Origin: Anaerolineales bacterium
GTDB taxonomy: Bacteria; Chloroflexota; Anaerolineae; Anaerolineales; UBA4823
Reading direction: 5' to 3'
Length of the DNA: 58,289 nt
Assembly: GCA_035291645.1 (NCBI GenBank)
Contig: DATDRQ010000310.1
Location: 1-58,289, forward strand
A model generated the notes under the pieces. That model saw only the letters and a list, made by a program, of their open reading frames with translations. It was not told where the DNA came from and did no database searches. Positions 28,240-39,308 of this stretch are shown here, piece after piece; the first letter of the stretch is position 1; each line of letters opens with the position of its first letter. A program made the translations under genes and the position numbers.

Positions 28240-30327
28240 ATGACGATACACGTCAAAGACCAGGAATTAACCAGGTCCTCACTCAACCTGCTGTACGATA
28301 TCAGCCGAGAACTGGCGACAGCCATCGATCTCAATGCTGTCCTCAAACGCGTCTTGTCCCTATCGATGGAAAACGTCGGGGCGGCCAGTGGGAGTTTGAT
28401 CGTCTTAGACGATGAGGGCCAGCCGATCGAATCGATGCTCATCGTTGGCTCCAGGATCATCCAGCACACCACGCAGGAACTCAGCGCCACACTTAATTAC
28501 GGGCTGGCAGGCTGGGCAGTCCGCAATAGCCAGGCAGCTTTGATCACAGACACAAGCCGAGATCCAAGGTGGCTGATCCGGCCGGATGACCGGGCAGAGC
28601 GGACCGGAAGGAAGTCTGCTATCAGCGTCCCCTTAACAACCCACGACCGGGTGATCGGGGTGATGACGTTGGTTCATCCTGCACCAGGCTTCTTTTCAGC
28701 CGCGCATCTGTCCTTGTTGCAGTCTATCGCCGACCAGGCCAGCATCGCTTTGTTGAATGCCCGGTTGTATCATGAGAGCCAGCGCCAGGCCAGGGTGATG
28801 CAGGCGGTCGCCGAAAGCGCCGCGGTGATTACAGACGTGCTCGATCTTGAAGAAGTCCTGCAGCGCATCCTGGTACAGATCAGCCGGGCTTTAAGAGTCG
28901 AGGTGGTCTCCCTGGCCTTGATCGACCAGAAAGACGGAGGTTTAATTTTTCTTGCCTCCACAGATCAGTCCAGCCATCGTATTATCGGACAACGCCTGGC
29001 GCTGGGTGAAGGCATAGCCGGTTGGGTTGCGCAGGAGGGCCGCGGTATGATCGTGACAGAATCCAGCGATGACCCCCGGTTCTTATGTGAGTTCGATCGG
29101 CAGAACGGTCTAGATACCCAGGTAGTTGCCTGCGCGCCGATCAGTTTACACGGCAACGTGATCGGGGTGATCGAGGCGATCAATCCATTAGAGGGAAGCT
29201 TCGAGCCGGATGCACTTAAGGTCTTAACAGGGATCGGCAGCCTGGCTGGGACTGCGATCCATAATGCACAGCTATTTGAACAGCTGCAGGCAGCTCATCG
29301 CCGCTACCTGGAGTTGTTCGAAGATAGCATCAACGCGATCTTAATCACCGATCTGGCGGGAAAGATCCTGGAAGCCAACCGGCAGGCAGAACTCCTGACC
29401 GGCGCAGGAAAAGATTCATTGCGCCGGCTAGCTATCCACCAACTTATCACCGAACAGGACGAAGGAGCCGAGCCCCAAACAGACCCGCACACTTATGGAG
29501 ATACCCGCACTTACGAGTCTTTCCTTCGCCCGGACAATGGGCGGCTGATCCCGATCCAGATTTATATTCGCATTGTAAAGATAGAAGACGACGACTGCCT
29601 GCAGTGGATCATTCAAGATATCTCTGAACGCAAGGATCTGGATCGCCTGCGGGAAGATCTGATCTCCATGGTCTATCACGATCTGCGCTCGCCTCTGGCC
29701 AATATCGTCTCCAGTCTGGATGTGGTCGCGGCCCTCCTTCCCCCGCAGGTCGATCCGGCGGTACGATCTCTGCTCAATATCGCCATGCGTTCGACCGAGC
29801 GCATCCAGCGGCTTACCAACTCCTTGCTTGACATCAAACGCCTGGAGAGCAATCAGCCGGTTGGCAATCTCTCAACCGTATCCCTGTCTCAGCTGGGAAA
29901 AGAGACCATCGAAGCCGTTCAGCCTCTCGCCGATGGTAAAGGTCAAACGCTTCACCTGAACATCCCGGCAGATCTTCCCCAGATTCGCATCGAAGCTGAT
30001 ATGATCAGGCGCGTCTTGATCAATCTGGCGGAAAACGCAGTGAAATACTCCCCACCTGGCGGCCAGATTTATCTCGGGGCCCAGCTTGGGGAAGACTGGA
30101 TCACGATCTGGGTACAGGATACCGGCCCAGGGATTCCGCCAGTGGAAAAAGACCGTATCTTTGATAAATACACCCGCCTGAATACGATGGACGGACCGAA
30201 AGGCATCGGCCTGGGATTGAATTATTGCCGGCTAGCGGTAGAAGGGCATGGGGGAAGGATCTGGGTGGAAAGCCAGCCCGATGAAGGTTCCCGTTTTTGT
30301 TTTACGCTTCCAATAGGGAACCGTTAG
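28240..30327 (+). CDS. GAF-GAF-PAS sensor histidine kinase
   Basis: Two GAF-like regions, then a PAS-like region, then HisKA MVYHDLRSPLANI and HATPase blocks NLAENAVKYS, DTGPGIP and GIGLGLNYC. Confidence 0.88.
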   Translation: MTIHVKDQELTRSSLNLLYDISRELATAIDLNAVLKRVLSLSMENVGAASGSLIVLDDEGQPIESMLIVGSRIIQHTTQELSATLNYGLAGWAVRNSQAALITDTSRDPRWLIRPDDRAERTGRKSAISVPLTTHDRVIGVMTLVHPAPGFFSAAHLSLLQSIADQASIALLNARLYHESQRQARVMQAVAESAAVITDVLDLEEVLQRILVQISRALRVEVVSLALIDQKDGGLIFLASTDQSSHRIIGQRLALGEGIAGWVAQEGRGMIVTESSDDPRFLCEFDRQNGLDTQVVACAPISLHGNVIGVIEAINPLEGSFEPDALKVLTGIGSLAGTAIHNAQLFEQLQAAHRRYLELFEDSINAILITDLAGKILEANRQAELLTGAGKDSLRRLAIHQLITEQDEGAEPQTDPHTYGDTRTYESFLRPDNGRLIPIQIYIRIVKIEDDDCLQWIIQDISERKDLDRLREDLISMVYHDLRSPLANIVSSLDVVAALLPPQVDPAVRSLLNIAMRSTERIQRLTNSLLDIKRLESNQPVGNLSTVSLSQLGKETIEAVQPLADGKGQTLHLNIPADLPQIRIEADMIRRVLINLAENAVKYSPPGGQIYLGAQLGEDWITIWVQDTGPGIPPVEKDRIFDKYTRLNTMDGPKGIGLGLNYCRLAVEGHGGRIWVESQPDEGSRFCFTLPIGNR

Positions 30328-30410
30328 GGCCGGGCGCGGTCTCAGGATCAAGCGTGCTTGCGCGCAAGCACGCTTGCGTGCAAGCACGGATTTGGAGACC
30401 TGCGTATCAT
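30324..30410 (+). repeat. intergenic structured repeat, copy A
   Basis: TTAGGGCCGGGCGCGGTCTCAGG..GTGCTTGCGCGCAAGCAC-GCTTGCGTGCAAGCACGGATTTGGAGACCTGCGTATCAT. It overlaps the kinase stop codon (TAG 30325-30327) and ends 12 nt before the next ATG. Confidence 0.8.
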
Positions 30411-30422
30411 AAAGGAATTGCG

Positions 30423-31277
30423 ATGCATCAAGTAACCCCTGCGGTTTATTATGAAGATGGTTATTCAGGCGTCACGCTGGGCGCCTTAACCTTCCCACAT
30501 GGCACCATCCTGATCGATGCGCCTCTGCGAACGGAGGATGCGCGCACCTGGCGCTCGACGCTCAACAACCTCTCCCAGGGTCCAAATCGCATTCTGATCA
30601 ATCTAGATGCCCATCTTGATCGCACCTTGGGCGCCCGTGCCCTGGATACCACCATCGTAGCCCACCTGAAAACAGCCCAGGTGTTCCGCAACCGGCCTTC
30701 GATATTCAAAGGCCATAACACCGAGAGTGGCGCGGAATGGGAAGCGAACAACGACGTCCTTGGAACGCGCTGGGCGATCCCCGATGTGACCTTTACCAAC
30801 CGCCTGTTCTTTTACTGGGGAGGGCCGGAGGTGGTCCTGGAACACCATCCAGGTCCGGCTCTTGGGTCGATCTGGGTCATTATCCCTCAGGAGCGGGTGG
30901 TTTTTGTCGGAGATACCATCCTCTCGGACCAGCCTCCATTTCTCGCGTCTGCTGACTTGACCGCCTGGATCGAATCGATGGAACTCTTGCTGGCTTCGTA
31001 CAAGGAATATACGATCATCAGCGGGCGCGGCGGCGTGGTTAGTATGGATTCGATCCGCAGCCAGCTAAAAGTCCTCAAACAAATCCTGAAGGGACTGGAG
31101 AAGCTGGCAAAGCGCAATGCTCCTCCCGAGATGACCGAAGGTCTGATATCCGGGCTGCTCGCAGACATGGATTTACCCCCCAAGCGCCGGGAACATTTCG
31201 CGCAACGCTTAAGACACGGTCTGTACTACTATTACGCCAGGCGTTACAGGCCGATCGACTCCTACGAGCAAGATTAA
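30423..31277 (+). CDS. MBL-fold-like protein with a degenerate metal motif
   Basis: ATG 30423 (MHQVTPAVYYEDGY..). ILIDAP..INLDAHLDRTLGA sits where HxHxDH is expected. The track's 5' extension runs through repeat A. Confidence 0.5.
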   Translation: MHQVTPAVYYEDGYSGVTLGALTFPHGTILIDAPLRTEDARTWRSTLNNLSQGPNRILINLDAHLDRTLGARALDTTIVAHLKTAQVFRNRPSIFKGHNTESGAEWEANNDVLGTRWAIPDVTFTNRLFFYWGGPEVVLEHHPGPALGSIWVIIPQERVVFVGDTILSDQPPFLASADLTAWIESMELLLASYKEYTIISGRGGVVSMDSIRSQLKVLKQILKGLEKLAKRNAPPEMTEGLISGLLADMDLPPKRREHFAQRLRHGLYYYYARRYRPIDSYEQD

Positions 31278-31360
31278 GTTTGGGCGCGGTTTCCGGGCCA
31301 CACAGGCTTGCGCGCAAGAACGCTTGCGAGCAAGCACGGATTCGAAGACCTTCGTAATAA
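31273..31360 (+). repeat. intergenic structured repeat, copy B
   Basis: ATTAAGTTTGGGCGCGGTTTCCGGGCC..GCTTGCGCGCAAGAACGCTTGCGAGCAAGCACGGATTCGAAGACCTTCGTAATAA. It contains the stop codon of the upstream gene (TAA 31275-31277). Confidence 0.85.
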
Positions 31361-31386
31361 AAAAAAGAACCGAGAATGGGAGAGCA

Positions 31387-32454
31387 ATGGCTCAACCTCA
31401 ATACCTGCCTCTGCTCGAACTCACCCGGGGTGACACGGTCGAGTCGCTTCACCACGGATCGATCGCCATCTCGGATTCGAAAGGTCACCTGGTCGCCTGG
31501 TATGGGGATCCACAGGTGGTCACCTTCCTGCGCTCCACGGCAAAACCTTTCCAGGCTCTTCCGTTCTTCGAACATGGCGGCCAGGCCGCCTTCGACCTGA
31601 CACCCGCCGAAATCGCCCTGATCTGCGCCTCCCACTCGGGGACGGATGAGCACGTCGCCGTAGCCTTGAAAATCCAATCCAAAGCAGGCCTCCAGGAAAC
31701 AGACCTGCTGTGTGGTGTTCATCCACCATACGACGATGCCACTGCGGATGCCATGCGGCTACGCGGAGAACAGCCCACTCCCAACCGGCACAACTGCTCG
31801 GGGAAACACACCGGGATGCTGGCTTTTGCCCGCATGCAAGGCTGGTCAACCGATAACTATATCGATCTGCACCATCCTGTCCAGCGCGAGATCATCAAGA
31901 CTTTTGCGGAGATGTGCGCCCTGCCTCCTGAGCAGGTACGCATCGGAATCGACGGCTGCTCCGCGCCGAACTTTGCCGTTCCACTGTGCAATGCTGCTTT
32001 GGCATTCGCAAAATTGGGCGATCCTACCAGTCTACCCCCGGCTCGGGCCGCTGCCTGCCGGCAAATCGTGACTTCCATGACCAGCCATCCGGAAATGGTG
32101 GCTGGACCCGGGCGGTTCGACACCCTTTTGATGAGAAATACTTCCGGGCGCATATTGGCCAAGGCAGGCGCCGAGGGCTATCAGGGACTGGCTCTGCTGC
32201 CCGGGTGGTTAGGCCCCGGTTCACCTGCCCTCGGCATCGCCATAAAGATCGCGGACGGCGACTTGCGCGGCCGCGCCCGGCCAGCCGTTTCTCTCGCAGC
32301 CCTGTGGCAGCTCGGCGCGCTTTCCACCGCCGAGCTGGAGTCCCTGGCCGAATTCGGTCCCGAGTTTACCCTTTCCAACTGGCGCCAGATCCAGGTTGGA
32401 CTCGGTAGACCTTGCTTCCGGCTAGCCTTTGCAGAACGAGATATCCGGGAATAG
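31387..32454 (+). CDS. asparaginase, type II family (Rhizobium-type, PF06089-like)
   Basis: LRSTAKPFQALP, CASHSGTDEHV and NCSGKHTGML blocks. GGGAG lies upstream of ATG 31387. Confidence 0.8.
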   Translation: MAQPQYLPLLELTRGDTVESLHHGSIAISDSKGHLVAWYGDPQVVTFLRSTAKPFQALPFFEHGGQAAFDLTPAEIALICASHSGTDEHVAVALKIQSKAGLQETDLLCGVHPPYDDATADAMRLRGEQPTPNRHNCSGKHTGMLAFARMQGWSTDNYIDLHHPVQREIIKTFAEMCALPPEQVRIGIDGCSAPNFAVPLCNAALAFAKLGDPTSLPPARAAACRQIVTSMTSHPEMVAGPGRFDTLLMRNTSGRILAKAGAEGYQGLALLPGWLGPGSPALGIAIKIADGDLRGRARPAVSLAALWQLGALSTAELESLAEFGPEFTLSNWRQIQVGLGRPCFRLAFAERDIRE

Positions 32455-32456
32455 CG

Positions 32457-33128
32457 ATGGATCAGGCCGAGCTAGCGCGTGCTGTTCACGAGAGACTGCT
32501 CGAATACTACGGCTATCCCCAGTGGCGCGAGCCGCTGCCTCCCTTAGACGAGCTGATCTCGACCATCCTGTCCCAAAACACCAACGATACCAACCGGGAC
32601 CGGGCTTTCCGGGCTTTACGCACGCGTTTCGAATCCTGGGAAGAGGTGAGGGATGCCGCTCCTTCGGCGGTGATCGAGGCTATCCGCCCGGCGGGACTGG
32701 CGAACCAAAAGGGGCCGCGCATCCAGGCTATCTTGCGAGCGATCACGGAAGAGCGTGGAGACCTCGAGCTCGACTTCCTGAGAGAGCTGCCCACCGAGGA
32801 CGCACAGCGCTGGCTGCTACACTTCAACGGAGTCGGCCCGAAAACCGCCGCCATCGTGTTGCTCTTCTCCCTGGACAGGCCGGCTTTCCCGGTCGATACC
32901 CATATCTTCAGGGTGACCGGGCGGCTCGGGATTCGCCCTGAAAAAGTTGACGCAGTCCAGGCGCACGTTCTTCTGGCTGAACTGCTGCCCCGCGAGGCGT
33001 ACTATCCGGGCCATCTGAACCTGATCCGTCTGGGGCGCGAGATCTGCCAGGCACGCAAGCCGCTCTGCCAGATCTGCCCGCTGAAAGACCTGTGTGCATA
33101 TTACGCGAGTCTCGGTTCAATACTCTAA
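32457..33128 (+). CDS. nth: endonuclease III family DNA glycosylase/lyase
   Basis: HhH-GPD region LHFNGVGPKTAAIVLLF and a C-terminal C-x6-C-x2-C-x5-C cluster (CQARKPLCQICPLKDLC). Confidence 0.85.
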   Translation: MDQAELARAVHERLLEYYGYPQWREPLPPLDELISTILSQNTNDTNRDRAFRALRTRFESWEEVRDAAPSAVIEAIRPAGLANQKGPRIQAILRAITEERGDLELDFLRELPTEDAQRWLLHFNGVGPKTAAIVLLFSLDRPAFPVDTHIFRVTGRLGIRPEKVDAVQAHVLLAELLPREAYYPGHLNLIRLGREICQARKPLCQICPLKDLCAYYASLGSIL

Positions 33129-33186
33129 CATCCGGTCCAATCGCCCGGCCTGATAGATTGCCACCATCCGAATTGAGGATACTCTC

Positions 33187-33630
33187 TTGGACATCTACTT
33201 TGCCTGCTCGATCACAGGAGGCCGCCAGGCAGAAGCGGCCTATCAGGTCATCGTCCAGACACTCGAGGCAGCCGGGCATACCGTTCCGACCGCACACCTC
33301 TCGCAACCAGATGCGCTCTCCATGGAAGCAATCGTCGATCCGTATGTTGTCTTTCGGCGTGATATCGAATGGATCAACACTGCCCAGGCATTGATCGCCG
33401 AGGTGAGCACCCCTTCGCATGGGGTCGGATACGAGGTCGCTTACGCGTTGAGCATCGGCAAGCCGGTGCTGTGCTGCTATCTGGACGGCATCCCAGTCTC
33501 GAAGATGATCACCGGCAACACCCACCCACGCCTGCAGGTCCGGGCATACCGGAGCCTGGAGGAGATCCAGCCGCTTGTGAGGCAATTCCTCCAGCAGGTG
33601 GATCTGCTTTATAAGCCAATCATGGACTGA
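33187..33630 (+). CDS. 2'-deoxynucleoside 5'-phosphate N-hydrolase (DNPH1/Rcl-like, nucleoside 2-deoxyribosyltransferase superfamily)
   Basis: TTG start. DIYFACSITGGR.. and ..LIAEVSTPSHGVGYEVAYAL.. align by eye with the DNPH1 blocks YFCGSIRGGR and VVAEVTQPSLGVGYELG. Confidence 0.7.
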   Translation: MDIYFACSITGGRQAEAAYQVIVQTLEAAGHTVPTAHLSQPDALSMEAIVDPYVVFRRDIEWINTAQALIAEVSTPSHGVGYEVAYALSIGKPVLCCYLDGIPVSKMITGNTHPRLQVRAYRSLEEIQPLVRQFLQQVDLLYKPIMD

Positions 33631-33856
33631 GGTGAACAATATCACCTTTAACTTGTGACCTTTGGCATTCAACATCGCTGGCCGAATCCGGTAAACTATA
33701 GGCAGAGCAAAGACGGGACTCAGGACACCTCCTGATGCTCATCGCTGTTTCCTCCTTTGGCGAAAGCCTCCGCCGGGATTTTCCTCACCGCCCCGGCGGA
33801 GGCGGCTTTAACCTTCCCTTACGTTTCCAGGCGATTTTTTCCCTCCCTTTCTTTTT

Positions 33857-33941
33857 TATACGACGGTCTTCGAATCCGTGCTTGGACGTAAGCCTGCTTG
33901 CGCGCAAGCCTGGGTGGTCCGGAAACCGCGCCCAACTTAAT
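33857..33941 (-). repeat. intergenic structured repeat, copy C (inverted orientation)
   Basis: The reverse complement reads ATTAAGTTGGGCGCGGTTTCCGGACCACCCAGGCTTGCGCGCAAGCAGGCTTACGTCCAAGCACGGATTCGAAGACCGTCGTATAAA, nearly collinear with copy B. Confidence 0.85.
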
Positions 33942-34002
33942 CGGGAGTCTTCCAGTACAGATTCCACTTTGTTAGAGTTGTATAATAGATCTGCGAAAGT
34001 GC

Positions 34003-34032
34003 TTGACTCGACATCCTTAGAGCGCATAGAAT
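34003..34032 (+). promoter_or_regulatory. candidate promoter of the DnaJ-class gene (TTGACT-18-TAGAAT)
   Basis: Hexamers at 34003-34008 and 34027-34032, about 60 nt upstream of ATG 34094. Same hexamer pattern as the hsp20 promoter candidate. Confidence 0.4.
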
Positions 34033-34093
34033 ATATTTGAGTTTTTAATGTCTGGTGCTCGCCTCGGGGAAGGATCACCACCAAAGATATTTT

Positions 34094-35062
34094 ATGGATT
34101 ATAAAGATTACTATAAGATCCTGGGCGTCGATCGGAAGGCAAACGAAGGTGAGATCAAACGCGCCTACCGGAAACTGGCTCTGCTATACCACCCGGACCG
34201 AAATGCAGGAGATAAGCAAGCAGAAGAAAAATTCAAGGAGATCAACGAAGCTTATCAAGTCCTGAGCGACTCTGAAAAGCGCGCCCGTTACGAAGAGCTG
34301 GGGGAATCCTATTCACGCTGGCAGCAGCGCGGTGGAGCACCTGGCGGCTTCGACTGGGATGAGTGGTACTCCGCGCAAGCCCAGGGTCGCGGTCCGAGGA
34401 CCGGGGGTGTACGGGTCGAGGTCGGCGATCTAGGGGATATCTTTGGCCAGGCAGGCGCAGGAGACTTTTCCGAGTTCTTTCGCCGTATTTTCGGGGGGAT
34501 GCCGGATGTCGATCCGATTTATCGCAGCGAAGGCCGGAAAAGCACGCGGCGCCGTCCAACAGAGTCCTACCAACAACCGGTTACGATCAGCCTGCAGGAG
34601 GCCTTTCAAGGAACGACCCGTCGAATCGAGGTGGATGGGCGCCAGCTGGAAGTGAAAATCCCGCCAGGATCACGCACCGGCACCAAGGTCCGGGTCGCCG
34701 AAGCGCTCACCACCAGTCCTGACACGCCAAAGAGCGATCTGTACCTGGTCATCCAGGTAGCAGATGACCCGCGCTTCGAGAGAAAAGGGGATGATCTGCA
34801 CACAGACATCCCTGTCGATCTTTTCACAGCTGTTCTCGGAGGAACGGTGACGGTTCCTACGTTGAGTGGAGATGTCGTCCTTACTATTCCAGCTGGGACC
34901 CAGAATGGGCAATCTTTCCGGCTTTCCGGGAGAGGCATGCCGCACTTAAGGAACCCACAGGAGCGAGGGGACATGTACGTCCGGGTCTCGGTGAAAATCC
35001 CGCGGGATTTATCTCCCCGACAAAAAGAATTGTTCCAGGAGATCGCCAACCTGAAAAAATAG
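34094..35062 (+). CDS. J-domain co-chaperone, class II (CbpA/DnaJB-like, no zinc finger)
   Basis: DYYKILGV..YRKLALLYHPDRN (HPD), a G/F-rich linker and DnaJ C-terminal beta domains. No CxxCxGxG repeats. Confidence 0.88.
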   Translation: MDYKDYYKILGVDRKANEGEIKRAYRKLALLYHPDRNAGDKQAEEKFKEINEAYQVLSDSEKRARYEELGESYSRWQQRGGAPGGFDWDEWYSAQAQGRGPRTGGVRVEVGDLGDIFGQAGAGDFSEFFRRIFGGMPDVDPIYRSEGRKSTRRRPTESYQQPVTISLQEAFQGTTRRIEVDGRQLEVKIPPGSRTGTKVRVAEALTTSPDTPKSDLYLVIQVADDPRFERKGDDLHTDIPVDLFTAVLGGTVTVPTLSGDVVLTIPAGTQNGQSFRLSGRGMPHLRNPQERGDMYVRVSVKIPRDLSPRQKELFQEIANLKK

Positions 35063-35127
35063 GTAACAAGATTCCCAGGCAACCATTGGTTGATCATGAA
35101 TAGCACACAAAACAAAAGGGATCGGTG

Positions 35128-36351
35128 ATGAATATACGTACCGTTAATTTTCTTGCCTTAGTCAGTTTACTTACCATATCGCTGTTTGCCTGCCAGGTAC
35201 TCAGCACCCCGGCATTTGTTAATCCTGCGCCTTCGGACACGATCGAGCTGGGGACCTCCATCCCTGTCCTACCGGGGGTTACAGAAATTGCCCAGCAGAC
35301 GACGGAAGAGTCGCTGCAAACCACCGGTAGCGTCCAGAGTTTCCCCGATCTGGTCGATTTGGATGGTACGCTGGTCGCCCTGTACGAGGAAGTCAATCCG
35401 GGAGTCGTCGCCATCCAGGTGCTTACGGAGGATGGGGGCGGACTCGGTTCGGGTTTCGTGATCGACAAAGACGGGCATGTTGTCACGAACTACCACGTGA
35501 TCGAAGGCTTTGATGATCTGGAAGTTGATTTCCAGTCTGGGTTTAAAGCACGCGGGAAAGTCATCGGCACGGACACAGATTCCGACCTGGCTGTTGTAAA
35601 GGTCGAGGCGCCTGAAGAGGAGCTCTTCCCGCTTCCACTGGGAGATTCAGCCCAGTTGAAGGTCGGGCAGACGGTGATCGCCATCGGCAATCCCTTCGGG
35701 CTGAGCGGCTCAATGACGACCGGGATCGTCTCTGCTCTCGGGCGAACGCTCGATTCGATGCGGATCGCTCCAGGTGGGAACAGTTCGTTCACCGCCGGAG
35801 ATATCATCCAGACCGATACCGCCATCAACCCGGGCAACTCCGGAGGACCTTTGATCAACCTGGAAGGCGAGGTGGTAGGGATCAACCGGGCCATCCGCAC
35901 GCTCAACTTCTCCGCCGACTCCGAGCCGGTTAACTCCGGGATAGGCTTCGCAGTCGCCATCAATATCGTCAAACGGGTTGTGCCCGCTTTGATCGAAAAA
36001 GGCAGTTACGACTATCCCTATATTGGCATCTCTAGCCTGGACAATATCAGCCTGCTCGAACAGGAAGCCTTAGGCCTCCCAAGCTCGATCGGGGCTTACA
36101 TTACCGATGTATCGCAAGGCAGTCCTGCCGAGGAAGCCGGGTTACGCGGCGGCGATCGAGCGACTGACTTTCAGGGGATTGAGGCTGGGGGGGATCTAAT
36201 CACCGCCATCGACGGCCAACCTGTGCGCAATTTCAGCGACCTGCTATCTTACCTGATCAACTATAAGAACCCGGGAGATACCGTCCTGCTGACCGTGATT
36301 CGGGATAACGAGGATTTCGAAGTCGAAGTCACCCTCGACAAACGCCCTTAA
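35128..36351 (+). CDS. HtrA/DegP-family serine protease with PDZ domain
   Basis: Signal/anchor helix. Catalytic triad context TNYHVI, DSDLAVVKV and NPGNSGGPL. C-terminal PDZ (..GLRGGD..ITAIDGQPV..). Confidence 0.88.
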   Translation: MNIRTVNFLALVSLLTISLFACQVLSTPAFVNPAPSDTIELGTSIPVLPGVTEIAQQTTEESLQTTGSVQSFPDLVDLDGTLVALYEEVNPGVVAIQVLTEDGGGLGSGFVIDKDGHVVTNYHVIEGFDDLEVDFQSGFKARGKVIGTDTDSDLAVVKVEAPEEELFPLPLGDSAQLKVGQTVIAIGNPFGLSGSMTTGIVSALGRTLDSMRIAPGGNSSFTAGDIIQTDTAINPGNSGGPLINLEGEVVGINRAIRTLNFSADSEPVNSGIGFAVAINIVKRVVPALIEKGSYDYPYIGISSLDNISLLEQEALGLPSSIGAYITDVSQGSPAEEAGLRGGDRATDFQGIEAGGDLITAIDGQPVRNFSDLLSYLINYKNPGDTVLLTVIRDNEDFEVEVTLDKRP

Positions 36352-36463
36352 AGTCCCCACAAACAATGGCCAAAGGAGGCTTAATCCGCCATTACAAGCG
36401 CACCTGGATTACGAAACCGCGTAAGGTCGATCGATTCATCTGGCATGAAGAGAGGAGATTTGT

Positions 36464-37564
36464 ATGTTTACCGAACGCGATTTAGGGGAGTTGTTGGAAT
36501 ACAAAGCGAATCACCCGGTGCTGAGCGTCTATTTGAACACAGACCCGGCTGGTGGGAGCGCAGATGGGTATAAACTTCGCCTGCGCAGCATGCTGAAGGA
36601 AATCGACCTCCCAGCGGACGAACAGATCGTCGAACGCTACTTCGATCACCAACATGACTGGTCGGGTCGGAGCGTAGCCGTTTTTTCCTGCGAACCAGAA
36701 AACTTCTTCCGTGTTTACCCGTTTGCTGTTCCGCTGCGCGACCGTCTCCGGGTGAGCGAGCGCCCGCATGTTAAACCGCTGGCTGACCTGATGGATTCTT
36801 ACGGCGGGTATGGGATCGCCCTGGTCGATAAGCAGGGCGCACGCTTGTTCTACTACCATCTAGGTGAAATCAGGGAGCAGGAGGGGATGGTGGGGGAAAC
36901 CGTCCGCCGCACGAAAAGGGGAGGCAGTTCACAAACCCCGGGAAGGCGCGGCGGCGTCGCCGGGACAACGAATTATGTCGAAGAAGTGACCGAGCGAAAC
37001 ATGAAAGAGGCGGCCGATTTCGCCGCCCGCTTCTTTGCGGAAAACAATGTACGCCGGGTGTTGATCGCAGGCACCGACGAGAACGCGAACGCCTTCCGTA
37101 ACCACCTGCCTAAAGCCTGGCAATCCCTGATCGTTGGCACCTTCCCAATGAGTATGACCGCCGCTTCAGCCGACGTGATGGAACGCGCCGGCGAGGTTGG
37201 CACCCAGGCTGAGCGCCGCCGCGAAGCCCAGCTGCTGCAAACCTTGGTGACCAGCGCTGCCAAAGGGCGAGGTGGGGTGATCGACCTGGAGGATACGCTC
37301 AATGCCGTGCGCGCCGGGCGGGTGATGACGCTAGTTATCCAGGAAGGCTACCGCGCGCCGGGATTTCGCTGCCAGGGATGTGGCTATCTCACTGCCAGTA
37401 TGTTGGAGAGCTGCCCATTCTGTGGAAAATCCTTCGACCAGATCCCCGATGCCGTCGAGCTGGCTGTGCGGCGGGTGATGCAGGATGGCGGTGAGGTGGA
37501 AGTCCTGCATGATGCAGGTGGGGAGAAGGGCTTTCGCGGGATTGGAGCCTTGCTCAGGTATTAA
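36464..37564 (+). CDS. bacterial archaeo-eukaryotic release-factor-like protein (baeRF / Vms1-eRF1-Pelota-like) with an inserted zinc ribbon
   Basis: N-terminus ..HPVLSVYLNTDP.. typical of baeRF/VLRF1-like proteins. A basic loop RRTKRGGSSQTPGRRGG sits where eRF1 has GGQ. C-terminal eRF1-domain-3-like region with CQGCG..CPFCG. GAGGAG SD upstream. Confidence 0.55.
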   Translation: MFTERDLGELLEYKANHPVLSVYLNTDPAGGSADGYKLRLRSMLKEIDLPADEQIVERYFDHQHDWSGRSVAVFSCEPENFFRVYPFAVPLRDRLRVSERPHVKPLADLMDSYGGYGIALVDKQGARLFYYHLGEIREQEGMVGETVRRTKRGGSSQTPGRRGGVAGTTNYVEEVTERNMKEAADFAARFFAENNVRRVLIAGTDENANAFRNHLPKAWQSLIVGTFPMSMTAASADVMERAGEVGTQAERRREAQLLQTLVTSAAKGRGGVIDLEDTLNAVRAGRVMTLVIQEGYRAPGFRCQGCGYLTASMLESCPFCGKSFDQIPDAVELAVRRVMQDGGEVEVLHDAGGEKGFRGIGALLRY

Positions 37565-37581
37565 TCCCACTTTGTTTCGCG

Positions 37582-37615
37582 AAAGAATCCCCTTCCACTG
37601 AGAAGGGGATTCTTT
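37582..37615. terminator. bidirectional hairpin between the convergent baeRF-like and hsp20 genes
   Basis: Perfect 14-bp stem AAAGAATCCCCTTC / GAAGGGGATTCTTT with a 6-nt loop; T/A-rich flanks. Confidence 0.65.
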
Positions 37616-37647
37616 AATTGAGGCAGTCCTCAAAATGAATATTAGAA

Positions 37648-38076
37648 CTACCCGGCGTTTACCTTGATAACCTTCGGGCGGTGTGCTTCGGCCTTGGGGA
37701 CTCGCAGAGTGAAGACGCCGTTCTTCAGGCCGGCCTCCGCCTTGGAGGGATCGAGAGCAGTCGGGAGTGTGATTACGCGAGAGAACCGCCCGGCTGGAAG
37801 TTCGCACACCAAGTACTCGGCGTCATCCTTCTTCTCCCGGAACTCGCCCCGTAAGGTAACGGTGTTGTTCAAGATTTCGATATTTATCTCGTCAGCTTCT
37901 ACCCCAGGCGCCAAAGCCTTGATCAGGTAGGCCTCTTCTTCGGCTTCCACATCCACTGCCAGGAGCCTTTCGCGTTCCGCAGTCTCCTTTTCCGGGAAGC
38001 TCTCAGCCATCAGCCGGTTCATCGCTCCACGCATCGAGACCATCCGCCGGTAAGGGGAAACGTACAGGGTCATCAT
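37648..38076 (-). CDS. small heat-shock protein, Hsp20/alpha-crystallin family
   Basis: 142 aa. Alpha-crystallin domain pattern (..VDVEAEEEAYLIKALAPGV..ITLPTALDPSKAEAGLKNGVFTLRVPK). AAGGAG SD. Confidence 0.9.
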   Translation of the reverse strand: MMTLYVSPYRRMVSMRGAMNRLMAESFPEKETAERERLLAVDVEAEEEAYLIKALAPGVEADEINIEILNNTVTLRGEFREKKDDAEYLVCELPAGRFSRVITLPTALDPSKAEAGLKNGVFTLRVPKAEAHRPKVIKVNAG

Positions 38077-38110
38077 GATCTATCTCCTTGAAATAATTTA
38101 CTTGAGGTTC

Positions 38111-38140
38111 GTTCTATTGGGACAGATGATAATGACTCAA
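38111..38140 (-). promoter_or_regulatory. candidate hsp20 promoter (TTGAGT-18-TAGAAC on the minus strand)
   Basis: -35 is plus-strand 38135-38140 and -10 is 38111-38116, about 28 nt upstream of the AAGGAG-ATG. Confidence 0.4.
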
Positions 38141-38214
38141 TATCAGAAGGGTGCATAACTTCTATAGACGTTTTATAAGAATTGGACCGGGAATTCCGGA
38201 CGAGCGGAGCATTA

Positions 38215-38970
38215 TTATTCCGCCGGGGTTTCCTTGCGGGCAATCAAGATCATGTCTGTGGATGAGGCGCGGTAACGGGTTCGCGTAAAGCTGCCATAAC
38301 TGGCGACCTCCTGGAGCCCGGCCCGCTCCAGTTCAACCAGGTAATCTTCCCGCAATGCCAGGTCGTGACTCGCCACCGCTGTCAGCCGCTGCACACGCCC
38401 ATCCGGCAACAAAAGATCGTAATGCCACTTCACCACGAACCTGTCATCTCTTCTGTTCCATTCGCTGCTGACCTGGAAAGGACCACCGCCGCCAGGATCC
38501 AGCAACGTCTCTTCCCATTCCGGTGCGCCGTAATCAGGCAAATCCCTGAGCGCCAATGGATTCGGCAGGCTGGCCACGAACGCTCCGCCGGGGGAAAGAT
38601 GCTTGTAGACGCAGGCGAGACAATCCTGCCTGGCCTTTCTGGTGAGAGTGCTGAAGGTATTACACGGCATCAGGATCAACGGGAATTCGATCGCCAGGTG
38701 GAACGCAGACATGTCAGCCAGAAAAACACAGGCGTTAGACTCGAACTTTGCCGGCAGATTGTTATGCAAGAAGTCGAGTACATCCGGATCGTTGTCGAGA
38801 CCGTAGACGGTAAACCCGGCCTCGACCAGCGGGGTAAGCACGCGCCCGGTTCCGCAGCCCAATTCCAGCACAGGTCCTCCGTATTCTCCCGCCAGAGAGA
38901 GCCAGAATGGAATATCCTCGGATCGTTGTGAGTGGTGGGTGTGGTACAGCTGCGGGAATTGGTTTTCCAT
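38215..38970 (-). CDS. class I SAM-dependent methyltransferase
   Basis: Motif I VLELGCGTGRV and the acidic residue of motif II (VYGLDNDP). Confidence 0.8.
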   Translation of the reverse strand: MENQFPQLYHTHHSQRSEDIPFWLSLAGEYGGPVLELGCGTGRVLTPLVEAGFTVYGLDNDPDVLDFLHNNLPAKFESNACVFLADMSAFHLAIEFPLILMPCNTFSTLTRKARQDCLACVYKHLSPGGAFVASLPNPLALRDLPDYGAPEWEETLLDPGGGGPFQVSSEWNRRDDRFVVKWHYDLLLPDGRVQRLTAVASHDLALREDYLVELERAGLQEVASYGSFTRTRYRASSTDMILIARKETPAE

Positions 38971-38979
38971 AGTCCTTAT

Positions 38980-39029
38980 TTGATCCTACGGTCTTCGCAT
39001 CCGTGCTCGGAAACCGCGCCCAACTTATT
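38980..39029 (-). repeat. intergenic structured repeat, copy D (internally deleted)
   Basis: The reverse complement reads AATAAGTTGGGCGCGGTTTCCG/AGCACGGATGCGAAGACCGTAGGATCAA. Both termini of the family are kept but the central double palindrome is missing. It ends 9 nt before the methyltransferase ATG. Confidence 0.7.
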
Positions 39030-39076
39030 CCGAGCGAACACTATCCTCCAGGTCAACTCCTCCTGTCAACTCCTCC

Positions 39077-39106
39077 TTGACGGCAATCCGCTATCCGCAT
39101 TATACT
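39077..39106 (+). promoter_or_regulatory. candidate tRNA-Pro promoter (TTGACG-18-TATACT)
   Basis: The -10 ends 9 nt before the first tRNA base. Confidence 0.5.
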
Positions 39107-39115
39107 CACGACACC

Positions 39116-39191
39116 CGGGGTGTAGCGCAGTTGGTAGCGCACCGCGTTTGGGACGCGGGGGTCAGCGGTTCGAGTCCGCTCACCCCGACCA
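39116..39191 (+). tRNA. tRNA-Pro (anticodon TGG), CCA encoded
   Basis: Acceptor CGGGGTG/CACCCCG, D arm GCGCAGTTGGTAGCGC, anticodon arm CCGCG-TTTGGGA-CGCGG, T arm GCGGTTCGAGTCCGC, then ACCA. Confidence 0.92.
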
Positions 39192-39209
39192 ATGGGTTTC
39201 CTCTCGGAT

Positions 39210-39264
39210 GAAACGTGAACCGTGAATCTCTAAACTCTTTCACGCTTCACGTTTCGCATTTTTA
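39210..39264 (+). terminator. rho-independent terminator after tRNA-Pro
   Basis: 17-bp imperfect inverted repeat GAAACGTGAACCGTGAA ..12-nt loop.. TTCACGCTTCACGTTTC, followed by GCATTTTTA. Confidence 0.6.
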
Positions 39265-39308
39265 CGCATGCTCATCTAAATTCACATCTTATCGCGGGAG
39301 CTAATCAG

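Follow-up and report, generated by a model that had tools for sequence, protein, structure and literature searches.

A family of stop-codon-adjacent hairpin repeats, probably mobile, in an uncultured Anaerolineales bacterium

Short dispersed repeats such as the REP/BIME, BOX, Correia, ERIC, and MIRU families are well known in cultured Proteobacteria, Firmicutes, and Actinobacteria and are hardly described in Chloroflexota. Here we analyze a family of non-coding hairpin repeats represented by four copies (A–D) in a 58,289-nt stretch of DNA from an uncultured Anaerolineales bacterium (GenBank assembly GCA_035291645.1, contig DATDRQ010000310.1), the whole of which we call the window; other contigs are designated by L numbers. 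The literature on Anaerolineae or Chloroflexi yielded nothing specific on repeats of this type, and we found no such small hairpin repeat described for Anaerolineae. As set out below, the family is previously undescribed yet of a well-known kind, that of the small non-autonomous hairpin repeat of the MITE (short for miniature inverted-repeat transposable element) or BOX type, and it is probably a lineage-specific family of non-autonomous elements that are, or recently were, mobile.

The closest described architecture is that of the BOX elements of Streptococcus pneumoniae (boxA-boxBn-boxC), in which a tandem array of boxB, variable in size, is framed by boxA and boxC, the elements form stem-loops, and the stop codon of 36 genes lies in a copy (PMC3049150). 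Common to BOX and the present family are two conserved, pairing terminal modules around a tandem middle module that folds largely alone, a number of middle modules that varies from zero to several between loci and strains, and dispersed, non-coding copies with predicted stem-loops in which the upstream stop codon is supplied or overlapped. BOX elements have also been used as variable-number tandem repeat (VNTR) markers (PMC3049150). The likeness is one of analogy, not membership. No sequence relationship between the two is evident, judged by module lengths: boxA, boxB, and boxC measure 59, 45, and 50 nt, whereas the arms here are about 25–30 nt and the unit is 16 nt. Moreover, each unit here is a perfect palindrome, the host belongs to Chloroflexota rather than Firmicutes, and copies lie mostly between co-directional genes, in sense orientation and directly 3' of TAA or TAG.

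REP sequences are defined as palindromes of 20–40 bp with an unpaired GTAG or CGTC head (PMC3733652), and REP/BIME elements have proposed roles in mRNA stabilization (PMC3733652, PMC2817692). The REP/BIME elements of Enterobacteria and Pseudomonas resemble our family in being GC-rich extragenic palindromes, often placed just past stop codons and inside operons, and in forming arrays with a variable number of palindromic units; unlike those headed units of alternating orientation, the units here are 16 nt long, untagged, arranged head to tail, and bounded in every case by specific arms. The Correia elements (CREE/NEMIS) found in Neisseria are MITEs of about 100–155 bp that have 26-bp terminal inverted repeats, duplicate a TA target, contain an IHF site, and create promoters at their ends. 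Like our family they are bounded by inverted repeats, occur in long and internally deleted short forms, are co-transcribed with their neighbors, and form long hairpins, which in Correia elements are cleaved by RNase III (cited in PMC3049150). None of the 26-bp repeats, TA duplication, IHF site, or promoter-creating ends was seen here, and Correia elements, for their part, do not have a tandem palindromic centre.

MIRU elements, reportedly described by Supply and co-workers in 1997 (Supply et al. 1997), are said to be intercistronic in operons, including a two-component operon, to lie in one orientation, to vary in copy number between strains, and to touch the flanking stop and start codons. 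Intercistronic placement, orientation, and VNTR behavior are thus common to both families. By contrast, in MIRU the whole 46–101-bp unit is repeated, a small open reading frame (ORF) overlaps the flanking stop and start, and there is no hairpin, whereas in our family only the internal 16-nt palindrome repeats and the element begins with a stop codon that no start codon overlaps. Finally, derivatives of IS200/IS605 elements, which are moved by HUH single-strand transposases and include PATEs and REPs, insert 3' of a short specific sequence in a fixed orientation and carry G-T-paired hairpins on one strand. Our family recalls them in what looks like insertion next to a short target in a fixed orientation, no clear duplication being seen, in G-T pairs formed on one strand of the hairpin, and in a right end, AAAG, that resembles the target TAAG. 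Unlike IS200/IS605 elements, which have separate sub-terminal hairpins at each end and a strong replication-strand bias, the arms here pair with each other and the four window copies are split 2:2 between strands, with GC skew negative in 27 of 29 skew windows; nor was a partner transposase found in the 58-kb window.

Copies in the window and architecture of the element

Direct reading and a clean MAFFT alignment showed four copies where the initial annotation of the window had placed them (Table 1). The right terminus AGCACGGATTCGAAGACC, allowing up to three mismatches, matched four times in the window compared to 0.02 matches expected from shuffles, and a pattern requiring both termini matched exactly copies A–D, with 0.00 matches expected. 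A hidden Markov model (HMM) built from the four copies recovered them with nhmmer at E values of 1e-28 to 3.5e-8, and a covariance model scored them at 71 (A), 90 (B), 83 (C), and 42 bits (D); neither model found a fifth copy in the 58-kb window. Conserved termini and a palindromic centre were present at all the places where they had been reported, and the alignment bore out the claim that copy D lacks the centre. It also holds, as annotated, that copies A and B contain the upstream stop codon and that ATG codons follow copies A, B, and D, at 30423 (MBL-fold hydrolase), 31387 (asparaginase II), and 38970 (minus strand; methyltransferase). Copy A is the most diverged of the copies, with a left end of TAGGGCCGGGCG and an arm of GGTCTCAGG.

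Table 1. Repeat copies and their central arrays in the window. Extents of copies run from the stop or TAA triplet to the final G of the A-rich tail; array periods were determined with Tandem Repeats Finder (TRF).
Feature	Position	Strand	Description
Copy A	30325..30414	+	2 central units; starts at TAG stop (30325-30327) of GAF-PAS histidine kinase
Tandem array of copy A	30356..30388	+	16-nt palindromic units GCTTGCGCGCAAGCAC then GCTTGCGTGCAAGCAC; period 16, 2.1 copies, 94% matches
Copy B	31275..31367	+	2 central units; starts at TAA stop (31275-31277) of MBL-fold hydrolase
Tandem array of copy B	31306..31338	+	16-nt units; period 16, 2.1 copies
Copy C	33851..33939	-	2 central units; antisense to both neighbors (nucleoside deoxyribosyltransferase, dnaJ; both +)
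Tandem array of copy C	33879..33912	-	16-nt units; period 16, 2.1 copies, 83% matches
Copy D	38975..39027	-	Short form, 0 units; two arms joined directly

A family alignment of 17 sequences, made up of copies A–D, alleles of them from strains, and copies at further loci, defined a consensus order of a junction triplet T-A-A/G, a left arm (G)TT(T)GGGCGCGGTTTCCGGACCACGCA, a central array of units, and a right arm GGATTCGRAGACCGTCGTATCAAAAAAG. The elements are non-coding, 50–150 nt in size, and start at the stop codon; module lengths are about 27 nt for the left arm, 16 nt for the unit, and 28 nt for the right arm. The centre consists of n tandem self-palindromic units GCTTGCNNGCAAGCAC, with n ranging from 0 to 5, and each unit contains a perfect 14-bp dyad, GCTTGC-N2-GCAAGC, that recurs head to tail at a 16-bp period. 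This 16-nt palindrome was never found alone outside the elements. The consensus tail, ATCAAAAAAG, is A-rich, not TAT-rich or -10-like as in the initial annotation, and some copies have TATAAA or TATCAA within it. Beyond the hairpin the sense strand reads AUCAAAAAAG and the antisense strand AACUUA.

The initial annotation erred in seeing no obvious terminal inverted repeats: CGCGGTTTCCGGA and TTCGRAGACCGTCG, the two arms, constitute an imperfect pair of them. For a 16-pair arm helix, 89.6% of the alignment cells were paired, compared to 30–47% when the 3' partner was slid; with one unit hairpin added to the arm helix (columns 20–36 with 91–108), 90.6% of cells formed standard pairs, against the same 30–47%. 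The whole element is predicted to fold as one long irregular hairpin, the tip of which would lengthen with each added unit, and the stem begins 5 nt after the stop codon in most copies. In copy A, the minimum free energy (MFE) has a z-score of -5.9 and the helix spans about 31 bp. Three conserved G-U pairs (20:108, 27:100, and 32:95) are valid on the sense strand only and give it a slightly more stable fold, in 11 of 17 copies and by 2.1 kcal/mol on average. This bias is weak evidence in keeping with a predicted hairpin in sense-strand RNA or in single-stranded DNA.

Selection on the fold, which the initial annotation had seen hinted at, did not emerge from the alignment. Covariation among the 17 copies did not exceed that of shuffles, as the observed score was reached by 130 of 500 column shuffles and pairs with double changes and extra pair types were likewise each reached by 130 of 500, a result that we attribute to the family being too young for the test. 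Pair 23:104 is broken in eight of 17 copies, and alleles of copy B have no terminal helix in the MFE fold. A T-to-C change matched by GAGACC in copy A, previously read as compensatory, turned out to be two independent one-sided changes. Column 27 changes from U to C in four sequences opposite an invariant G100, and column 98 changes from A to G in seven opposite an invariant C29. Both changes occur in copy A, only that of column 27 in the first copy of contig L076 (L076:892-948, L076a) and in L079, and only that of column 98 in L075, the second L076 copy (L076:10082-10154, L076b), L077, L078, and L084. Three features had gone unnoticed in the initial annotation: the arms are inverted repeats, the centre is a tandem array that varies between strains, and the left end abuts TAA or TAG.

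Dispersal, unit number, and empty sites

A scan of metagenomes showed that the family extends beyond the window. Sixteen contigs were recovered, of which two carry the window locus itself (98.7–99.2% identical), one is a chance match (L071), and the rest have genuine copies. After comparison of flanks with the window (nhmmer, BLAST) and merging of duplicates, these gave 11 new distinct loci with flanks unrelated to the window, or 15 loci with the window's four. The tetranucleotide composition of the new loci correlates with that of the window at values mostly between 0.87 and 0.97, the shortest contigs giving 0.68 (L079) and 0.83 (L072), compared to mostly 0.59–0.78, and 0.85 in one case, for 58 loci matched by chance in other genomes; this places the extra loci in the same genome or in closely related ones. 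The MBL-fold protein has homologues that are named Anaerolineales bacterium.

Those 58 matches, one per genome and all in high-GC sequence unlike the family, were the entire yield of a relaxed two-termini pattern run against 185,579 species-representative genomes. The family is thus not detectable in the GTDB species representatives at that stringency, which requires exact arms and would miss diverged relatives. A scan of viral contigs gave 0 matches, and BLASTN against plasmids and phages gave none.

Several contigs start or end in or beside a copy (L006:1-56, L072:104-191, L078:146-265, and the 3' end of L003). The repeat appears to break short-read assemblies, which may explain why it went undetected in species representatives based on metagenome-assembled genomes (MAGs). 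One further contig pair has a mosaic structure. L072:1-212 and L076:10079-10262 are 100% identical in left flank and element over 184 nt and then continue into wholly different right flanks, and over its first ~30 nt the L072 right flank is similar (94.7%) to that of the L078 copy (L078:124-259). Copies may have recombined here, the sub-family may be a longer, composite one, or the assembly may be chimeric at the repeat.

Unit number differs between strains at single loci. Looking up the exact MBL-fold protein encoded between copies A and B (ENA, JGI, Logan) gave 10 contigs from the same population, and all 10 have copies A and B, with differing unit numbers. This Anaerolineales population is represented in JGI samples 3300025325, 3300025313, and 3300002120, in the ENA assemblies ERZ27254791, ERZ27254793, ERZ27254843, ERZ27254844, ERZ27254851, ERZ27254858, and ERZ27254873, and in SRR3990171, among others. 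At site B, most contigs have one unit (L001, for example), the window and L005 have two, and L008 has three; site A has one unit in L009 and two in the window, and site C has five in L002 and two in the window. The centre is therefore a VNTR. Over the family as a whole, n is 0 in copy D and L076a, one half in L077 and L079, 2 in window copies A, B, and C, 3 in the L008 allele of copy B, L069, and L078, and 5 in the L002 allele of copy C; n = 1 is the commonest form. The central dinucleotide of the unit also varies freely between strains.

Comparison of the orthologous intergenic regions, a check that the initial annotation had put forward, showed that sites A–D are empty in relatives, apart from a relic at one site. 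Five contigs from four syntenic relatives were used, whose MBL-fold proteins are 89% (L085), 79% (L086 and L087), and 76% (L088 and L089) identical to that of the window, and neither the HMM nor the covariance model found a copy in any of them. Site A is empty in L086–L089, where the operon junction is only 8–9 nt long, reading ...GCG TAA GGAGCTGAC ATG in L088, ...AGC TAA GGAGACTTC ATG in L089, and ...TCC TGA GGAGCACC ATG in L086, compared to ...CGT TAG/GGCCGGGCG...GTATCATAAAG/GAATTGCG ATG in the window (slashes mark the ends of the inserted sequence). The histidine-kinase stop lies at the same codon position in the window and in the relatives, and given this shared position and the short junction, copy A lies exactly between the native stop and the Shine-Dalgarno (SD) sequence. 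At site B the stop (GAT TAA) is unchanged and the element is missing in L085–L089. Site C is empty in L085, L086, and L089, and site D in L085 and L086.

At site A of L085, a 65-nt insert (L085:9936-10000) replaces copy A, and its right part is a decayed right arm, ATTCAAAGACCTTCCTTTCAAAAAGGAA. We take the insert for a relic or else for a sister sub-family of that species, and the decayed arm accords with a copy A that is the most diverged of the copies and also the oldest. The left part of the insert is an unrelated AT-rich palindrome, GAATTTTCTT...AAGAAAATTC. A different GC-rich hairpin repeat is present in relatives at two of these intergenic hot spots, site B (L085:10856-11024; GGGGGTGATTTGACGG..CGCCCGCCAAACACCCCCAT) and site C (L089:4835-5263; GGGGGCGGTGTTTGGGCGGGCGTTGCCCGCCCAAACACCGCCAT), so that in related Anaerolineales sites of this sort seem to be taken up by other small repeat families.

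Placement, a proposed mechanism, and its rivals

ORFs were analyzed at all 15 loci to establish position and orientation. At nine of them a co-oriented upstream ORF, no shorter than 100 aa, ends with the boundary triplet as its stop codon, and at two more the stop is within 15 nt. Copies are sense to the adjacent gene at 13 of 15 loci (binomial p = 0.007), the exceptions being copy C and the L075 copy. The left junction reads W-T-A-R at 13 of 15 loci, the left end abutting TAA or TAG and rarely TGA or TCA. In copies C and D and the L075 copy, TTAAG or ATAAG stands at the junction though no ORF ends there (GATTAA is followed directly by GTTGGGCG in copy C, and GGAATAA by GTTGGGCG in copy D), which speaks for a target set by sequence (W-T-A-R) rather than for any need of a stop codon. 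In most copies AG or AAG stands at both junctions (TAAG/...AAAG/), where a duplication would merge with the ends of the element itself; the empty sites have flanks too diverged to tell the two apart.

At operon junctions the right end is followed by the ribosome-binding site of the downstream gene, and in most loci a gene starts 6–30 nt past the tail. The L077 copy lies between the genes for ribosomal proteins L10 and L7/L12 (rplJ-rplL), and the L074 copy between the genes for a response regulator and its histidine kinase. The rplJ-rplL and two-component junctions are co-transcribed in bacteria generally, and copies inside them must therefore form part of polycistronic mRNA and yet not terminate it. 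The neighboring genes serve unrelated functions, their products including a histidine kinase, MBL hydrolase, asparaginase II, methyltransferase, Ser/Thr kinase, RACo-type activase, epimerase, and LysM protein.

We propose that insertion is directed by sequence, immediately 3' of W-T-A-R and in a fixed orientation, which would by itself explain both the overlap with stop codons and the 13:2 orientation bias; insertions at W-T-A-R inside genes would be removed by selection. Because no consistent target-site duplication is visible, the inserting enzyme may be of the HUH (IS200/IS605-like) kind and place the element beside a short target without duplicating it, although it may instead duplicate 2–3 bp, (A)AG. 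Unit number would shift by replication slippage or unequal recombination. Copies filling operon junctions of 8–25 nt, including rplJ-rplL, would be co-transcribed into the polycistronic mRNA and tolerated there because they carry no U-tract terminator and because the unpaired A-rich tail does not block the ribosome-binding site that follows. If expression were affected, this would be a side effect varying with unit number: a 3' hairpin might stabilize the message, RNase III might cleave the long helices, or the stem might stall the ribosome as it terminates.

Features of MITEs are plain in this family: the elements have terminal inverted repeats, the copies are small, non-coding, and dispersed, and their presence or absence is polymorphic at orthologous sites. 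Several observations nonetheless weigh against the conclusion that these are mobile or recently mobile elements. Mobility is argued from distribution, and no mobilizing enzyme was found in the window, where Pfam scans of about 50 ORFs detected housekeeping genes only and no transposase, RAYT gene, or insertion sequence with matching ends. No clean target-site duplication is definable, as the nearest empty sites have diverged flanks and the element boundaries are uncertain by 1–3 nt. The even strand split under negative GC skew, with n = 4, disfavors a strict lagging-strand mechanism of the IS200/IS605 type. All copies come from a few related metagenomes, and the extra loci are assigned to one genome by composition only. 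Lastly, selection for some function of the RNA might instead lie behind the adjacency to stop codons and the bias in orientation.

That last point is the core of an alternative which we regard as unlikely, namely that the repeat is a selected cis-acting operon RNA element with a function of the REP/BIME type, in which unit number serves as a tuning knob for expression and mobility is only the means of spread. Such an element might keep 3' exonucleases off the upstream cistron, offer RNase III a processing site, or hold up the ribosome as it terminates. The predominance of sense copies, the stem that starts 5 nt past the stop, the G-U pairs valid only on the sense strand, the better sense-strand fold, and the long helix of copy A would all suit it, and RNase III cleavage of Correia elements and attenuation by BIMEs provide precedents (cited in PMC3049150). 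However, covariation is not above that of shuffles, pair 23:104 and the terminal helix of copy B alleles are not maintained, the flanking genes are of unrelated function, relatives do without the element at the same junctions, the energy gap between sense and antisense strands is small, and an asymmetric target explains the orientation bias equally well. A bolder combination of the two ideas, on which we would place little weight, is that the repeat is the non-autonomous form of an HUH-type single-strand transposon whose target is in effect an ochre or amber stop (W-T-A-R) and which has been domesticated as an intercistronic RNA module that operons can accommodate, the strain-variable number of 16-nt palindromes setting hairpin length and thereby RNase III cleavage, 3' stability, and ribosome termination or re-initiation.

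The initial annotation had offered a REP/BIME element, a MITE, a promoter or 5'-untranslated-region (5'-UTR) module, and a small RNA as possibilities. A dispersed structured repeat of the MITE/REP type is what the 11 further loci, the empty sites in relatives, and the lack of any Rfam, plasmid, or phage match support, and the other two options find no support. A small RNA is at odds with copies inside tight operon junctions such as rplJ-rplL. Membership in REP/BIME in the strict sense, with palindromic units moved by a RAYT tyrosine transposase encoded elsewhere in the genome, is improbable. Arrays of the BIME-2 type do vary in unit number, and the family matches REPs in its centre of tandem short GC-rich palindromes and its extragenic position just after stop codons. 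REPs of the GTAG type have even been reported in Chloroflexi (PMC3733652). The units here, however, are 16 nt with stems of at most 6 bp rather than 20–40 bp, have no unpaired GTAG/GTGG or CGTC head, run head to tail instead of alternating, and never stand alone outside the conserved arms; CGTC is present in the right arm of only nine of 17 copies, where it is base-paired, and no RAYT gene lies in the 58-kb window.

We give still less credence to a portable promoter or 5'-UTR module acting on the gene downstream, either by driving it or by modulating it. The short distance from tail to gene start in most loci, the TATAAA or TATCAA of some tails, and the promoters that Correia elements are known to create (PMC3049150) might suggest one. 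A search for sigma-70-type hexamer pairs with 16–18-nt spacing, which covers the promoter types of Chloroflexota incompletely, predicted nine sites in 30000-39300 and none within a copy; the consensus tail has no -35 element at suitable spacing, the methyltransferase promoter is predicted upstream of copy D, and the junctions are 8–9 nt long in relatives and the genes therefore co-transcribed. The unit, a 14-bp perfect dyad recurring every 16 bp, could also be pictured as the binding site of a dimeric DNA-binding protein, with GCTTGC-N2-GCAAGC arrays defining a regulon. We rejected this operator-array reading, to which we attach scarcely any probability, because copies with no unit (D and L076a) keep their arms and units are never found alone; arms are also kept in the half-unit copies (L077 and L079), the flanking genes are unrelated, orthologous genes in relatives have no sites, and the central dinucleotide and unit number vary freely between strains. 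That there is no family at all, only a local duplication or chance resemblance, might have been argued from the clustering of four copies within 9 kb, with none in the other 49 kb of the window, and from a species-representative scan that gave chance matches only; it is refuted by the 11 further loci with unrelated flanks and a chance expectation of 0.00–0.02 matches.

Other identities were likewise discarded. Rfam 15 at the gathering threshold matched only two tRNAs in the window, and at E ≤ 1 only the tRNA-Pro in 30000-39300, which accords with the earlier opinion that this is not a described family. No terminator of the hairpin-plus-U-tract type overlaps any copy. A tRNA-like reading of GGATTCGAA, which has a T-loop-like TTCGAA, was dismissed because ARAGORN and Rfam found no tRNA-like gene at the copies and there is no proper T-arm. 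In an integron attC site, an imperfect palindrome behind a cassette ORF has RYYYAAC at its 5' end and GTTRRRY at its 3' end; here GTTGGGC fits GTTRRRY but at the 5' end, no RYYYAAC is present at the other end, and the neighbors are syntenic housekeeping genes.

Neighboring features and implications

Copy C sits in a spacer that is not itself conserved and that separates the dnaJ promoter from a conserved block of ~100 nt. This block lies in 33658-33806 (+), between the stop of the nucleoside deoxyribosyltransferase gene (33630) and copy C, and reads ...CAAAGACGGGACTCAGGACACCTCCTGATGCTCATCGCTGTTTCCTCCTTTGGCGAAAGCCTCCGCCGGG...CCCGGCGGAGGC. Together with a short upstream block, CCTTTGGCATTCAACA, it is nearly invariant in nucleotide sequence in L085, L086, and L089 despite proteins that are 76–89% identical. 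Within it lie two CCUCC motifs and a GC hairpin of 12 bp, and Rfam has no match to it at E ≤ 1. On its minus strand a perfect SD sequence and ATG open a 43-aa ORF that is truncated in L086, and the plus-strand ATG is lost in L085. We consider the block a candidate conserved non-coding RNA or 3'-UTR element. The dnaJ promoter is predicted at 34003-34037 (+; TTGACT-18-TAGAAT) and, with an upstream TTAGAGTTGTATAATAG motif, is kept in L085, L086, and L089; the insertion point of copy C is just upstream of this conserved region. A 101-aa ORF at 33735-34040 (+) that reads through copy C is probably spurious, has no family match, and is called as a gene in public assemblies (L001). A 255-aa ORF at 32908-33675 (-) was rejected as a gene downstream of copy C because it overlaps the genes for endonuclease III and the deoxyribosyltransferase on the plus strand.

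Copy D lies between the predicted methyltransferase promoter (39069-39040, minus strand) and the ATG of that gene, and is thus probably in its 5' UTR. A perfect 13-nt tandem duplication (GTCAACTCCTCCT x2) is present at 39052-39077, between copy D and the tRNA-Pro gene. Its minus strand holds the TTGACA -35 hexamer of the predicted methyltransferase promoter, and a predicted tRNA-Pro promoter (39077-39106, +) begins at its 3' edge.

The family is otherwise an ordinary finding that indicates no new kind of system. What distinguishes it is its near-exclusive placement right after TAA or TAG in the orientation of the gene, its VNTR of mini-palindromes, and its tolerance in essential operons. In practice, copies at contig ends appear to fragment MAG assemblies, copies give rise to spurious gene calls such as the 101-aa gene through copy C, and the strain-variable array could serve as a strain marker in metagenomes. 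Should the bolder idea of a domesticated intercistronic module prove true, changes in palindrome number would provide a heritable, rapidly mutable tuning of the relative expression of neighboring cistrons, including rplJ-rplL and two-component pairs.

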